DNA of 64,000 nt from Octopus vulgaris. Its lineage: Eukaryota. The stretch lies in NCBI GenBank assembly GCA_951406725.2, contig OX597826.1, positions 5,394,001-5,458,000 on the forward strand, given 5' to 3'. Below, piece after piece: positions 1,872-52,470 of the stretch. The first letter of the stretch is position 1, and every line of letters starts with the position of its first letter. The notes beneath the pieces were generated by a model. The model did not search any database, was not told where the DNA came from, and saw nothing but the letters and a program-made list of their open reading frames with translations. The translations under genes were made by a program, and so were the position numbers.

Positions 1872-2340
1872 TAAACACGCCAAAGTGAAGGCATTTGAAA
1901 GATACACATAAATATAATTTGTTGAACTCTATGCATGCGGGACTCCGGTCAAATGTTATGTATCTAGTTCTGCAAATTATGTTTGTATACGACACACTAT
2001 GCTGATGAGCTTGCAGATTTTCGCGTATGCATATACGTGAATATTAACAAGCGAATCTGATCGGTACATAGGTAATCGTATTTATTTCGTATATTTTCAT
2101 TTGTCTTGCTTATTTTTTACACTTTGGTTTTGTGCTGAGTTTTTTCTTGAGAACACATTCTTCGTGGAAAATAGCAATTTTGACGTCTATATCTAGCATA
2201 TTGACAGTCCACTTTTAGTGGTCAGTCCTTTAAATTTTGTATGTAAAGAATATTTTAATCTTCGGATTTTTTTAATATGCTGGGCCACTGTTTGTAATTG
2301 ATTAATATCAATTTCTACCCTTAATCAATTTTATATTTAT
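1872..2340 (+). mobile_element. Hammerhead-bearing non-coding insert (Penelope-like pLTR or retrozyme-like) between two (TA)n tracts
   Basis: Bounded by (TA)n at about 1790-1872 and 2341-2395. Contains the hammerhead motif. The 3' end GGCCACT...AATT..ACCCTT resembles those of the 16.8 kb and 52 kb inserts. Confidence 0.6.
1997..2071 (+). ncRNA. Type I hammerhead ribozyme motif with A15.1>U mutation, in a (TA)n-embedded insert
   Basis: Stem I CTATG(1997-2001)/CATAG(2067-2071). Core CTGATGA 2002-2008. Stem II GCTTG/CAAGC with an internal hairpin. GAAT replaces GAAA. Near-palindromic stem III CTGATCGG, cleavage triplet GTA. Confidence 0.75.
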
Positions 2341-2504
2341 TATATATATATATATATATATATATATATATATATATATATATATATATATATACATACA
2401 TATTGTTGTATTTAGGAATGGTCAATAAAAACACACGTACTATATATTGAGTGTTACTTTGCTTCAGCAGTATTTATTTTTTACATTAATCTTAATGTTA
2501 TTTC

Positions 2505-2548
2505 GACCAGAGTTCTTTCGTCACACTCCTGTGACCGCGTCAGTGGTC
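2505..2548 (-). ncRNA. Minimal type I hammerhead-like motif, variant core CUGACGC-G
   Basis: Minus strand reads GACCA CTGACGC G GTCAC AGGAGT GTGAC GAAA GAAC TC TGGTC. Stems I and II are perfect 5-bp helices. Confidence 0.6.
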
Positions 2549-2852
2549 CTTTGCTTTCTTCTTTCTTATTTGAGTGTCTCTCCTTACTAACCGTCAGCCA
2601 TTTTGTATTTTTATTGTATGTGTCTTCATCGATCGACGTGGATTTTGCGGTGGAGGCGTGCATGGAGATGATCAACGAGAGCGAGGTGTAGTTCCTCATT
2701 GTCAACACAGAGGACCTGGGCTCCTACTTAGACTGACATATGACAACGAATACCTCGATAAACATGATCTTAGTAGTTTCTGCCCCAGTAGACGTTTAAG
2801 AGGTAGACCACCCACAATTACTTCTATGGCTAGGATGACCCATATAGCAAAG

Positions 2853-2896
2853 GATCACTGATGCGGTCACAGGAGTGTGACGAAATAACTCTGGCC
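2853..2896 (+). ncRNA. Minimal type I hammerhead-like motif, variant core CUGAUGC-G (inverted partner of 2505-2548)
   Basis: GATCA CTGATGC G GTCAC AGGAGT GTGAC GAAA TAAC TC TGGCC. Stems I and III are more degenerate than in the partner. Confidence 0.5.
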
Positions 2897-48423: not shown

Positions 48424-48673
48424 ATCAATTACAATTATCTCTTTTTCTTAAAGAAATTAAAATATTAGCAGTATTCGTTTTAAGCTCTATCATCTTTATT
48501 TTTATACAAATATATATTACCTGGTATTAATACAATATACTTGTCTTCTGCCCTTTTTCTCGTCAGATTTGAATTAGGGGAGGTTTTCAATGTTTTTTAA
48601 TGGCAGGGATGTTCCCACTTCATTGCCGTTCTGCTTTATATGCACTTTTTAATGAGAATGAAATCAAACCCAC

Positions 48674-49019
48674 CGTTATGTCGCACGTTCGGATGCCTCT
48701 ACTACTCTGTTCTAGTCAGGTTTGTTCTCATCTGGAGTTGCTGTTGCTGCCGCTCTTGTAGTTTTCCAACTGCTTTCAGTAACTCTTCGATTTCGGTACT
48801 ATTCGAAACCTCGTCGCCACTGTTATATCGCACTACTACACAGTGGATGTGTGAGCTACGAAATCCTTGTCACCACTGTTATGTCACACGTTCGGATGAC
48901 CTCTACTCAAATCGATTGTACTACTCTCTACTCTACCGACCTTCTCAACTGTTCTCTCTACTCTCTATATCTACGTATTGGGATGGCCTACTTCATCGTC
49001 TAGGGGCGTCCACACAACA
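48674..49019 (-). mobile_element. Internally deleted Gypsy-type LTR retroelement
   Basis: Minus strand: TG...CA LTR at 49019-48877, then PBS-like TGGTGACAAGG and TGGCGACGAGG (complementary to a tRNA-Ser 3' end), Gag-like EIEELLKAVGKLQERQQQQLQM, then a repeat of the LTR 3' end (about 48705-48674). Flanks CCCAC/ACCAC. Confidence 0.65.
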
Positions 49020-51984
49020 ACCACCCTGACTTATTTTCTTCCATCCTATCATTCACATTCATATTGAGTGCCATTACTTTTCCACTCTTTTCATACATCC
49101 AATCTTGTTTATACCATGCTGATTGCTGTCCCAATTATGCTCTCTTGAACATCCGCTCACAAAAAGTATCAGGCATATCATAACAAAAAACGACAACAAA
49201 AAAAAAAAAAACGGAAAGAATATACTAGAAATGCCGCCTGTGACTCCTGGATTAAATTATGTTCCAAAGGCATATCTTTCACTGTTAAATCGCGTTGACT
49301 ATTGGACAACCAATATTCTCAAGTACTGAAGAGTTTTCGAGCAATATGGTATTTAACGTAGAAATGGTTGGAAATTTTTACGTGACCGATTGAATATGAA
49401 CTTGTGAAATTTCCATTTTGTCTCCTTCTAAAGTACAAGTGTTATAACATAGAAAACTCGGTTAGGAAACATATTTAAAATTATTAATATTATTAATGAC
49501 AAAGTAAAAGAAGACAGCTTTAATATCAGAAGCCAGAGAACATACATGGATAGATTTCAACACATATATTTTCATTAAATATTATCCAATGAAAAATCTC
49601 GTAGTTAGCAGCCTACAGACATTTAAACAAAGATACAATATAAGTTAAGAAAATTTCTTTGTCTCTTATTGTGACTACATTCATATAATCCAAAAATGTT
49701 TTAAAACATGTAACACACATAATATGAGATGTCGTGTTCATTCATATATCAGTGTTATTGCTTCAGGTGAATTAAATTTCGTAAAAAAATTAAATAAATA
49801 AAATCCATACACAGAGTTCTACTTGGTAATTCTTCGGAAACTAACACGGTTGAAGAAATCAAGATGGCGAATTTGAAGATTTCTAGCTCATGCTGTTCAA
49901 ATCCTGCCGTGGTAACATTGCCCCTGATTCCTTTGGGTTAGATAAATAAAACGGTCTATTCTTTCGCTTGCTCGGACTTTTTAGAGGAATAAAACGACTC
50001 CAGCCACATTTAAATGCCCAAGACATGGCGCGTTTAATGACAGTACTCCTAAGAAAACAACATAAGTTATGAACCACAGGCACTTAAGGTGAAAATACGG
50101 CAACACAATTCAGAGCACAAGAAGTATTTTCTCGATAATGTCACAGCATAATTTGAACAATATAGACATAGGTTTAAGTGTGCTAGAATAAAAACTTTCG
50201 TTTGGAGAGAAAGGTAAATCTCATTGAGATTCTATTTCTCGAGCCAGAGGTCTAACATTTTTTACACCGACACGTTGTGCACTCCTAAATCTTTTAGTTG
50301 GTTATGAAATTCTATGAACTTAATTTCTTTATAGCCCCAAATTTCCTCAGCTTAATTTTCTGACAAACATTTTTCATTTTTTTTTTTTTTAGAGCGTTAA
50401 AGAATTAACATTCAATAAAAAAGAAATCGATTTGCATGTTTCTATTTCGATGTGATTTATCAGCATTTTATCGTCGCTGATTGTCAATATGTATCATCAC
50501 CCAATGATTGACGTATTGTGTGAAGACAATTGCAACAATTGATTGCCTTTATTACATTTCTACATGGGAGACCTGTTTAACATGTATAGCATGGATGTAT
50601 ATGTATCTTATCACACACACACACACATACACACACACATACATACATACACACACACACACACACACACATATATATATATATACTGATATATATATGT
50701 ATGTATATGTGTGGGTGTGTATACATACATATATTATATATATATATATATATATATATATATATATATATATATATATATATATATATATATATATATA
50801 TATATATATATATATATATATATATATGTATGTATGCATGTATGTATGTATTTATTCATGTATGAAGGCTGGAATACACATTCTTAACTTGCAGGTACGC
50901 ATATAGACACATATACACATTCACACACTTGTTTGTGTGTATGAGTGAGTGTGCATGCGTATTTGAGAGTGTGAGTGTGTTCGTACCTGTGCGCAGGTAT
51001 ATAACAGCATGTTTTATAGTTACATTTTGAGTGAATATATAATCATGACGGGCTTAACGTGAAATGGATGGCTGCACGCCAGGGAATACGAGATTCGAGA
51101 TCCAATACTAAGTCTAATTGAGACGATTCATCATTTTCTTCTACTTGCGAGTATTCGAACGGCTTCCTGTTGGCAAATCAGAACATCCAATGCGATGATT
51201 TAATCTAAACACACGGATCCTTATATTACGATTGTTGAAATAAATAATTTACTAAGAATTTAATATATTGCTCGAAAATATTAGTTACAAGGTTGATGAA
51301 ATTCCAGCAATGATCGAATTCTAGCCGCCATGTTGACCAATAAATTACCATTAAATCCTGCCGTAGAACCGCTAACACAATTGATCAAATTTCTTTCATG
51401 AGATTGCGTACTGTTATGTGCGTACTCTCTGTTCTCCTCTTTCTATTTCGTAAAATCTTAACATTTCAATACTGCTACACGTCTTTCTGCAACTCACGCA
51501 CCACAGCTCTATATTGTTCATGTCAACGAATAACGGCAACTGTATTAAGGTGTTCGCAATCTTTATGCCTGCAAGAAATAGTAACCAAATCTCTTTGAGA
51601 ACGTACCGCATCGTTCGAAAGAATTGTTGGCGATTTTGCATACGCCAGTTAAGAAAAGCACGTCGTCTGCAAGAAGTAACGAGACAAGGTCAAATCGTAT
51701 TTGAAACATAGCTTCATCGTTTTTCAGCATGACAAAGTGAAAGCTGTGATCTATTACTCTAATATACTTCTTGATATAATTCTATTAACATGTTTACTAG
51801 ACCATAGTACTGGGATGAGGAAGTAAAACGTAATCATATCGTCTCTGTCATGAGAGAGGGAGGTACATATAAACAGATAAAAAATACATTACGAACATCT
51901 AAACAGTTTATCAAGTATATATATATATATATATATATATATATATATATATATATATATATATATATACATATATATACATAA

Positions 51985-52470
51985 CCGTCTGATATGAATC
52001 ACCTCAGACAAACCATTGAATTTGCTGGCACTGGCAGTTTGGAGATGGTTTGTCTGAGGTGATTCATATCAGACGGGTATGTTCAATTTTTTAGTGCTTT
52101 CAAATCCAAATTAAGAAATGTTGAGCTGACGAAAGAAATGTCGAGTTTTAATTCGACTAATCTAGAAACGTTAACGTTCTCAAATGATCTTTGTACATGT
52201 GATATTTTGCTGTTTTTTCTTCCATATCTACGTGAATTATTTTTGAGTAAACACTATCTGGGTGACTTTTCTTATAGTAGTAGAAATTGGCTAAAAAAAC
52301 TTTTTGGCTGCTATTTCTAAAAGTTTCAGTATGTGGTAAAGTAAATAATTTTACTGAGCCCTAATTATATAACGTAATATTTTGAATATACCTTGAATGG
52401 TCCTTTTACATACTGAACACTATTTGGTGAAATTAATTAATAATTAATTGATTTTACCCTTTTATTATTT
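51985..52470 (+). mobile_element. Hammerhead-bearing insert between (TA)n tracts with a 5' fold-back
   Basis: Perfect 32-bp inverted repeat 51985-52016/52045-52076 at the 5' junction. Hammerhead at 52121-52183. 3' end AATTGATTTTACCCTT then (TA)n. Confidence 0.75.
52121..52183 (+). ncRNA. Type I hammerhead ribozyme, intact core
   Basis: TTGAG CTGACGA [aAGA..GTCGAG ttttaa TTCGAC..TCTa] GAAA CGTTAACG TT CTCAA. Perfect 5-bp stem I and palindromic stem III. The basal pair of stem II is mismatched. Confidence 0.85.

Follow-up and report, generated by a model that had tools for sequence, protein, structure and literature searches.

Minimal type I hammerhead ribozymes in (TA)n-bordered inserts of Octopus vulgaris, very probably 3' ends of Penelope-like elements

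Introduction

Minimal type I hammerhead ribozymes (min-HHRs) are carried by Penelope-like elements (PLEs) of metazoans. In the available text of Cervera and De la Pena (2014, PMC4209133), they have a short helix I and a palindromic helix III, an extra nucleotide after A9, a G10.1-C11.1 pair and frequently U17. They occur mostly as single motifs on truncated elements, in many unrelated families per genome, with opposite-strand motif pairs 100-700 bp apart and totals of 2,000-9,000 per genome; octopus is absent from the searched supplement of that study. Minimal motifs have shown little activity in published in vitro work.

EN+ PLEs (Neptune/Nematis, Hydra and Naiad) show 5' truncation, partial tandems, an adjacent inverted 5'-truncated copy, an optional tail at one end and a (TA)n preference, according to the accessible sections of Craig et al. 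(2021, PMC8557442). The same sections record this preference for the Octopus families Hydra-1_Obim and three Octopus Naiads, and describe canonical hammerheads in all Hydra-clade elements, whereas Naiads have an N-terminal endonuclease and thrive without canonical hammerheads. Animal non-LTR retrozymes are non-coding, AT-rich head-to-tail repeats of 150-450 nt, each with a single type I hammerhead (Cervera and de la Pena 2020, PMC7229834, available in part). They are strongly self-paired and multi-copy, have a proposed PLE origin and produce self-cleaved monomer RNA in both linear and circular form (PMC7229834; Li, Clavereau and Pollet 2026, bioRxiv 10.64898/2026.07.22.740005, likewise available in part). 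The Anolis PLE Poseidon, of another clade, was reconstituted in vitro (Frangieh et al. 2024, PMC11167929, accessible portion); it nicks AT-rich targets and starts reverse transcription internally, at two sites that give two 3' ends. Its hammerhead overlaps the ORF start and needs protein to cut. Cleavage was unneeded for insertion in that system: catalytic mutants had no effect on it, the main substrate was unprocessed RNA, and RNA ends at the site were not observed.

The main text of the 2026 O. vulgaris repeat annotation contains no occurrence of 'hammerhead' or 'ribozyme'. A search of the open-access literature found no paper on octopus hammerheads, and the species list of Lunse et al. 2017, a study described in a review (PMC6765202), may include octopus. 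Here we describe seven hammerhead-bearing insertions in one 64-kb window, that is, the whole stretch of O. vulgaris DNA that was analysed. They carry real minimal type I hammerhead motifs and are very probably truncated or deleted 3' ends of several octopus PLE families, likely pasted into pre-existing (TA)n by the reverse transcriptase-endonuclease of a PLE.

Results

Nine type I motifs in seven insertions

An earlier note on this DNA had claimed nine hammerhead motifs, all of which were found to be type I and to start or end exactly where it placed them. The core (CUGANGA...GAAA...UH, flanked by helices I and II as in a type I fold) is canonical in four motifs (17089, 17735, 18125 and 52121 only), has a compensated swap in one and a single core change in the remaining four. 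Most copies in the window are decayed and have probably lost the ability to cut themselves. The note had presented 17735-17811 and 52121-52183 as intact; both cores are indeed canonical, and the latter has an A.A mismatch at the base of stem II. The nine motifs represent six families, and they are not all unrelated to one another: 2505 and 2853 are two arms of one insert (92.8% identical), 17089 and 17735 are two copies within one insert (99.7%), and 18125 and 25314 belong to one family (81%).

The motifs resemble min-HHRs in their type I fold, short helix I and frequent U17, and also in being mostly single motifs on truncated elements, in belonging to many unrelated families and in forming opposite-strand pairs. 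A G10.1-C11.1 pair is present in eight of the nine and an extra nucleotide after position 9 in five. Stem III is a tiny palindrome in seven (one with a G.U pair), in agreement with the earlier note; both motifs of insert B are the exceptions. Unlike the published min-HHRs (PMC4209133, in its available part), one core has G3-C8, where U3-A8 is reported, one family copy has C9, and in inserts A and C a long hairpin of 43-50 nt forms stem II.

Insert A (1873..2340, + strand, 468 nt; fold z -3.3) has (TA)n on both sides and a decayed hammerhead at 1997-2071, with C3 at 2002, the predicted cleavage site after 2066, U at core position 15.1 and a near-palindromic stem III. Insert D (18025..18230, - strand, about 205 nt) holds a minimal hammerhead at 18159-18125 with a canonical core, an extra nucleotide after A9, an ACGU palindrome and U17. 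A second copy of its family, insert E (25213..25420, - strand), shares both ends with it, and the two terminate at the identical base on TA, each with its 3' end on (TA)n. The hammerhead of insert E (25350-25314) has G3 opposite G8. A pair count between D and E revealed no compensatory change and, with two copies only, is uninformative. Insert F (30999..31794) has (TA)n on both sides, and a hammerhead occupies the middle of its 144-nt fold-back (31157-31300). The minus arm (31232-31185) has the apparent G3-C8 swap, and the plus arm is cut within the core. Insert G (51970..52469, + strand, 500 nt), also between two (TA)n tracts, has a 5' fold-back (51979-52082) followed by the hammerhead at 52121-52183, which has an 8-nt palindrome and U17, its stem II being opened by the A.A mismatch.

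Among three partial motifs proposed earlier, the one at 31958 is plausible. It lies in insert I (31833..32198, + strand), which is TA-bounded. In the middle of its fold-back (31873-32056) lies a partial hammerhead (31954-31993) with U3, a palindromic stem III and GUC; the 5' strand of stem I was lost at the fold-back. Of the other two, 32836 (32831..32878, + strand) is doubtful, with a core and an unformed stem I, and 30325 lacks the 5' core. Inverted copies or fold-backs are present in inserts B, F, G and I, and insert C has both a partial tandem and an inverted copy; neither was seen when inserts A, D and E were compared for copies.

The motifs exceed chance expectation

An independent type I hammerhead descriptor, in which TA was not used, gave 18 matches in the window. 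It recovered eight of the nine motifs, seven of them among the eight best-scoring matches; the unpaired stem III of 2853 kept it from being recognised, and 25314 scored only 2.6. None of the three partial motifs passed, and an additional match at 52382 (score 6.8) is probably due to chance. Comparison with shuffled sequence revealed an excess: eight matches scored at least 6, against a mean of 1.7 and a maximum of 5 in 35 local dinucleotide shuffles. For palindromic stem III with a score of at least 7, six matches were observed against a mean of 0.16 and a maximum of 2 in 316 shuffles, and the reversed window had none. The loosest class (palindromic, score at least 2.5) gave seven against a mean of 1.25 but reached 9 in shuffles, and is therefore not discriminating.

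It is very improbable that the motifs are chance matches in hairpin-prone AT-rich DNA. Such matches do arise, as seen in the background of the loose descriptor and in single shuffles that score up to 12, and 52382, 32836 and 30325 may well be of this kind. Rfam gave no match at gathering score in the window; the 150 E-value matches listed of 302 fell mostly on microsatellites and were to microRNA and sRNA families, none reaching its gathering score. Folded as monomers, 2505, 18125, 52121 and 31958 did no better than shuffles, which is expected for minimal motifs and gives no support. When two core mismatches were allowed, 21 other TA-bounded segments yielded no further convincing motif (best score 5.5). 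For the main motif set, chance is refuted by the excess in the strict class, by conservation of the motif in paired copies and across sequencing runs, and by an identical layout 3' of a related ORF (L001, below).

Insertions are associated with (TA)n tracts

The positions of motifs and inserts in the window point to a microsatellite insertion bias. A TA tract of six or more units occurs within 300 nt of eight of the nine motifs, compared to 40.5% of the non-repeat background, and all nine have a TA tract 77-356 nt away on the 3' side. Counted as insertions, 7/7 are near TA (p 0.002) if the 17 kb pair is represented by its nearer arm, and 6/7 (p about 0.02, hand-worked) if by its farther one. 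The inserts had been described as TA-bordered on one or both sides, and accordingly five have TA on both sides and all seven on the 3' side.

The link could instead reflect elements that seed or carry TA tails, or that just survive in unconstrained repeat-rich DNA. The window holds 98 TA tracts, with 40% of non-repeat DNA within 300 nt of one, and insert C is TA-rich even at its internal head-to-tail joint. Among three control families that look like tRNA-SINEs (ARAGORN found no tRNAs in the window), one is also near TA (5/8) but has a TA-rich tract internally, and the other two avoid TA (1/12 and 1/6). Insert C has two different 3' ends, each on TA, and five inserts end on TA at both sides; together with the (TA)n preference recorded for Octopus PLE families in the accessible part of PMC8557442, this makes an origin other than targeting improbable.

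Insert B ties a hammerhead to a Penelope-type coding sequence

Insert B (2395..2934, 540 nt) has (TA)n on both sides and consists of an inverted 3' end with a hammerhead at 2548-2505 (- strand), a reverse transcriptase (RT) remnant, and a direct 3' end with a hammerhead at 2853-2896 (+ strand). Both hammerheads have C at core position 9 and a stem III without palindrome. The remnant (2626..2852, + strand) is a broken Penelope-type RT fragment with one frameshift and stops. It corresponds to residues 337-412 of the protein P0004, and its identity with O. vulgaris proteins is 83-93% (P0004, 84% in 45 aa, E 3e-18; P0003, 93% in 42 aa). Protein matches accordingly place the DNA in an octopus. The RT fragment is joined straight to the hammerhead-bearing end, so that insert B must be internally deleted. 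This abutment, overlooked by the earlier note, is the best coding link of the hammerheads to PLEs. It ties one family of the six to PLE coding sequence, and the motif of insert B is the least canonical.

P0004 has the order RT (a weak RVT_1 match, E 0.004, below the cut-off), CX2-5CxxC linker (here CX4CX2C) and the start of a C-terminal GIY-YIG region; P0010 and P0012 match GIY-YIG. The linker, shared with Neptune/Nematis in the available part of PMC8557442, suggests a protein of Neptune/Nematis type, and the C-terminal endonuclease of the window remnants sets them apart from Naiads. As a positive control, a metagenome relative (L001, 45% to the RT family of insert B) has its ORF stop at 1649, hammerhead C3 at 1683 and TA at 1771; another relative (L002) ends before any 3' flank. 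A terminal-repeat location next to a recognisable ORF was seen for insert B and L001, whereas the remaining five families showed no link to an ORF.

A second remnant (44347..45071, - strand), bordered by TA, is a broken part of a Penelope-type ORF from its C-terminal side, comprising the thumb end, an eroded linker and the GIY-YIG region. It is 37% identical to P0004, of the insert B RT family, and 42% to O. bimaculoides P0008. The earlier note had correctly seen a Penelope-type endonuclease here; the descriptor found no hammerhead in its insert, and given this and the low identity to P0004 the remnant shows the kind of partner rather than a linked partner. A tblastn of the window with nine PLE-type proteins found these two remnants only, and no intact PLE ORF was present in the 64 kb. 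Pfam on seven window frames gave nothing usable, and a word-index search with the 44.7-45.1 kb frame gave no match.

Families A, C, D, F and G, all non-coding, have no nucleotide similarity to insert B or to the insert of the 44 kb ORF. TA targeting also occurs among RTE-related elements. The five families could have been moved by another machine than the Neptune/Nematis type, either Hydra/Naiad-clade PLEs or an RTE-type LINE, which we regard as unlikely but far from negligible. Within the accessible text of PMC8557442, the Octopus Hydra and Naiad families share the (TA)n preference and the Hydra clade has the canonical hammerheads. The same source gives inverted 5' copies and partial tandems as hallmarks of PLEs; they argue against a LINE and do not separate PLE clades.

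Insert C is a retrozyme-like 534-nt unit

Insert C (16806-17968) comprises 1.5 tandem copies and one inverted copy of a non-coding unit whose longest stop-free frame is 72 aa. The monomer (16806..17339, - strand, 534 nt) has an intact hammerhead at 17165-17089 with C3 at 17161, a GUC site at 17093, a palindromic stem III and a long stem II. It is followed by a pseudo-LTR-like partial tandem copy (17340..17613, - strand) that repeats the 3' 274 nt of the unit at 100% identity and lacks the hammerhead. The 5'-truncated inverted copy (17622..17968, + strand) has an intact, canonical hammerhead at 17735-17811 and ends on (TA)28, 126 nt short of the 3' end of the main copy. The tandem and inverted anatomy in the window matches Fig. 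2 of PMC8557442, as far as that source is available, the end extension of 126 nt contrasting with 30-40 nt in EN+ PLEs. Inserts B and C both have two 3' ends, as does Poseidon.

Like animal retrozymes, insert C is non-coding, AT-rich, head-to-tail and multi-copy, with a type I hammerhead and a strongly self-paired unit (fold z -8.2). Unlike the retrozymes described in the available parts of PMC7229834 and of Li, Clavereau and Pollet, it measures 534 nt, is dispersed in TA as a 1.5-mer plus inverted copy rather than as a multimer array, and is known here from DNA. Its locus has one direct-strand hammerhead in 1.5 units, rather than at least two consecutive hammerhead-bearing units; the sequencing-run contigs with insert C are too short to show arrays elsewhere, and a pattern scan of metagenome contigs for its hammerhead gave none. 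The head-to-tail joint (17339 to 16806) is present in three of four sequencing runs. Its presence in run X13 (presumed RNA) was rejected as evidence of circles because the joint also occurs in DNA runs.

In the ribozyme, seven of nine listed substitutions keep the structure, and the 11 conserved core positions are free of them. The single mismatch in stem I is restored to U-A in some variants and to C-G in others, and two low-frequency variants break an outer stem I pair. Statistically, this conservation of structure is modest (p 0.011 without weighting and 0.059 when transitions are weighted; variants unphased). Over the whole unit, 19/25 substitutions keep the structure (p 0.002 unweighted, 0.053 weighted). 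Insert C is a recent, multi-copy, non-coding unit that may form RNA circles.

The same elements might carry their ribozymes as passengers: uncut linear tandem RNA would insert, and the 1.5-mer would arise by template jumping or array read-through, with no circles. This contests the cleavage and circle step only. We give it somewhat less than an even chance. It fits with the Poseidon mutants and unprocessed substrate (PMC11167929) and with the success of Naiads (PMC8557442), both as far as those sources are accessible, and every insert retains an uncut motif with both flanks, five of nine cores being non-canonical. However, selection on the RNA fold is suggested by the insert C variants, which spare the core and in most cases leave the stems paired, and the whole unit is strongly self-paired, a property described for retrozyme circles.

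Discussion

The reading of these inserts as non-autonomous or 5'-truncated, TA-targeting PLE ribozyme elements, put forward in the earlier note, gains support from the RT remnant at 2853 and the order in L001. In the mechanism that we favour, a C-terminal-endonuclease PLE protein would nick TA DNA and begin copying the RNA at a fixed position 3' of the ribozyme. Synthesis would mostly stop early, leaving a few hundred bases with an uncut hammerhead, and second-end priming would give the inverted copy. Computed duplex energies indicate that the stem III palindromes pair between molecules, not within one; two motifs in a tandem transcript could thus cut as a dimer. Religation of the ends after such cutting could yield a circular template, which would account for the 1.5-unit copy of insert C.

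Every part of this pattern is already in print, namely minimal hammerheads in PLE ends, inverted 5' copies and (TA)n preference (PMC4209133 and PMC8557442, in the parts available). The mechanism and architecture are not new, and the motifs of the window add cephalopod members to a known class. Seven insertions in 64 kb, a single window, extrapolate far above the min-HHR range of PMC4209133 (available part): if this density holds, the 2.8 Gb genome (size derived from the 2026 O. vulgaris annotation figures) would contain about 3 x 10^5, so that the genome-wide count is perhaps of the order of 10^5. A broader picture of some 10^5 octopus hammerheads, a spreading 534-nt retrozyme-like PLE parasite, abundant viroid-like circRNA, TA homing and a G3-C8 family is tentative, and we think it rather less probable than not.

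The inserts are ready test substrates. The 534-nt unit, with its near-identical copies, intact core and natural stem variants, could be used to test in vivo cutting by PLE hammerheads and the use of circular templates. If the density of this window holds genome-wide, octopus would be among the most ribozyme-rich genomes.

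Hammerhead motifs and their association with TA tracts

The earlier note placed nine hammerhead motifs, named here by coordinate and strand, in TA-bordered inserts, and all nine are present: 1997(+) in insert A (1873-2340), 2505(-) and 2853(+) in insert B (2395-2934), 17089(-) and 17735(+) in insert C (16806-17968), 18125(-) in insert D (18025-18230), 25314(-) in insert E (25213-25420), 31185(-) in insert F (30999-31794) and 52121(+) in insert G (51970-52469). A type I descriptor blind to TA gave 18 hits in the window, including eight of the nine motifs, seven of them among the top eight. 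At a score of 6 or more, eight hits were observed compared to a mean of 1.7 (maximum 5) in 35 local dinucleotide shuffles. The strict class, with palindromic stem III and a score of 7 or more, was well above chance, with six hits against a mean of 0.16 (maximum 2) in 316 shuffles and none once the window was reversed. The loosest class did not discriminate (seven observed; shuffle mean 1.25, maximum 9), and an Rfam search of the window gave no hits at the gathering score. The nine motifs reduce to seven insertions of six families, since two motif pairs are the arms of one insert each and 18125 and 25314 are 81% alike; the motifs are not all mutually unrelated. The core is canonical in four motifs, carries a G3-C8 swap in one and is damaged in four. 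Among three further partial motifs, 31958 in insert I (31833-32198) is plausible, and 32836 and 30325 are doubtful. The TA-linked hammerhead motifs of the window are real and well above chance.

The window is AT-rich animal DNA (34% GC), with 98 tracts of (TA)6 or longer. The proposed TA link was borne out: eight of nine motifs have a TA tract no more than 300 nt away, compared to 40.5% of the background, and all nine have one downstream at 77-356 nt. Counted by insertion, proximity was 7/7 (p 0.002) using the nearer arm at 17 kb and 6/7 using the farther arm (p about 0.02, worked by hand). Two SINE-like control families had no TA link (1/12 and 1/6); a third was linked (5/8), yet has a TA-rich tract of its own. 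TA is found at both ends of inserts A, B, C, F and G, and inserts D and E both terminate on TA, at an identical base. From this we infer TA targeting by these inserts.

Other repeats were also observed. A second family of SINE-like type carries a TA/TG tract internally and has eight pieces in the window (7774-8187, 14727-15562, 43755-44091, 48002-48425 and 63718-63912 among its coordinates). A dispersed family (8660-8938, 10148-10616, 57235-57790 and others) forms short direct tandems of ~185-210 nt at 10.1-10.6 and 57.2-57.8 kb; its head, labelled by eye, we take to be tRNA-SINE-like. Short TA-bounded, A-rich inserts at 1431-1589 and 55288-55621, alike by eye, may be ribozyme-less 3' ends of Penelope-like elements (PLEs).

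Link to Penelope-like coding sequence

Insert B holds a broken reverse transcriptase (RT) piece between its two opposed hammerheads, its last base lying directly before the 2853 motif. The piece matches residues 337-412 of a related protein, P0004, and its 44-residue frame (2721-2852) matches four Octopus vulgaris proteins at 84-100% local identity. P0004 (803 residues) is an RT that also has a CX4CX2C linker and the beginning of a GIY-YIG region; PMC8557442 describes this arrangement for Neptune and Nematis. In a metagenome contig encoding a 45% relative (L001), the ORF stop at 1649 is followed by a minimal hammerhead at 1683 and a TA tract at 1771; the contig of a second relative (L002) ends at the ORF. 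The ORF at 44.4-45.1 kb, put forward as the kind of partner that mobilises these elements, is a true PLE-type remnant and matches an O. bimaculoides protein, but it comes from a different family (37% to P0004), and no hammerhead was found in its insert. These protein matches make an octopus the very likely source of the DNA. The earlier note's interpretation of the inserts as truncated or non-autonomous, TA-targeting PLE ribozyme elements is supported.

Insert C contains a 534-nt unit

On the minus strand, insert C (16806-17968) consists of three parts: a 347-nt copy in inverted orientation, then a partial copy of 274 nt, then one complete 534-nt unit. The copies are 99.7-100% identical and therefore recent. 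No frame in the unit exceeds 72 codons, and the unit folds much more strongly than shuffled sequence (z -8.2, 0/100). The stretch is present, by a criterion of half the words or more, in 20 of the 24 sequencing runs listed (five organisms). In four of these 20, 2,630, 1,250, 11 and 133 contigs fit insert C; such contigs are blind to expression or circles, and none of the runs that contain the stretch is recorded as RNA. The head-to-tail joint of the unit was seen in runs X1, X3 and X13 and was absent from X9.

Seven of the nine substitutions listed for the insert C ribozyme keep its structure (p 0.011; 0.059 when transitions are weighted): one affects the free position 7, two are A-to-G changes that create G.U pairs, two fall in loops and two lie in stem I, each mending the mismatch present in the window copy. 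The other two, both rare, break an outer pair, and none of the nine hits the conserved core. Across the whole unit, 19 of 25 substitutions keep structure (p 0.002, or 0.053 with transitions weighted). This pattern is suggestive, not proof, of selection on the RNA fold.

One end of insert C alone carries a 126-nt extension (16806-16931), longer than the 30-40 nt described for the PLE tail. In X13 a loose TA end near 16922 suggests further alternative ends. Around 17053-17142, X3 and X9 contain at least one related hammerhead subfamily with G at position 7 and differing flanks (loose ends, joint letters). Insert C resembles a retrozyme in its workings, yet we do not class it as one, because at this locus it lies outside the size range and lacks the two units of that class.

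Inserts D and E share both ends, which suggests a discrete element some 205 nt long and disfavours random 5' truncation.

Fold-backs and an apparent G3-C8 core

Fold-backs at 31157-31300 (insert F) and 31873-32056 (insert I) have symmetry centres, 31228 and 31964, that fall on the hammerhead core. These two cases hint that ribozyme structure stalls or redirects copying, as if copying had stopped and reversed there. At a single locus, 31232-31185 (-), the core shows an apparent G3-C8 swap with five of six stem I pairs retained; in the insert F fold-back, C8 is common to both arms and G3 occurs in one arm only. For positions 3-8, the natural variation reported in PMC3088659 is U3-A8, and C3G/G8C is a known partial rescue (PMC11167929). 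No natural G3-C8 core was found in the hammerhead literature examined. A TA-bounded insert at 30258-30900 contains an old 400-nt fold-back (30412-30812, 72% identity) and, at ~30325-30345 (-), a decayed GAAA-palindrome-UC half motif.

Proposed mechanism and relation to known elements

The motifs, flanks, anatomy, one ORF link and variant pattern are direct observations; beside them we propose a mechanism. In an Anolis PLE, AT-rich DNA is nicked and reverse transcription starts internally, and because it does so at two sites, two 3' ends result (PMC11167929). Nicking and internal starts of this kind would likewise give two 3' ends, as in inserts B and C, and established PLE work points to early stops of copying and an inverted second copy. 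The published model adds hammerhead dimer cleavage and a circular template (PMC4209133). We give this predicted step roughly even chances here, because the palindromes and 1.5-mer fit, but cleavage is dispensable in the Anolis PLE (PMC11167929).

PMC4209133 already covers the motif class along with opposed pairs, U17 and the extra nucleotide, and PMC8557442 covers tandem and inverted structure with (TA)n preference, including Octopus Naiad and Hydra families. PLE-derived retrozymes are described in PMC7229834 and by Li, Clavereau and Pollet 2026 (bioRxiv 10.64898/2026.07.22.740005). Recently active Penelope-like families of O. vulgaris are counted in PMC13282606, whose main text leaves ribozymes unmentioned, and no paper on octopus hammerheads was found in the open-access literature searched. 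The window's motifs are a new set of members within an already described class; their remaining value lies in the 534-nt unit, which could serve as a substrate for tests, in the number that may exist genome-wide and in the apparent G3-C8 core.
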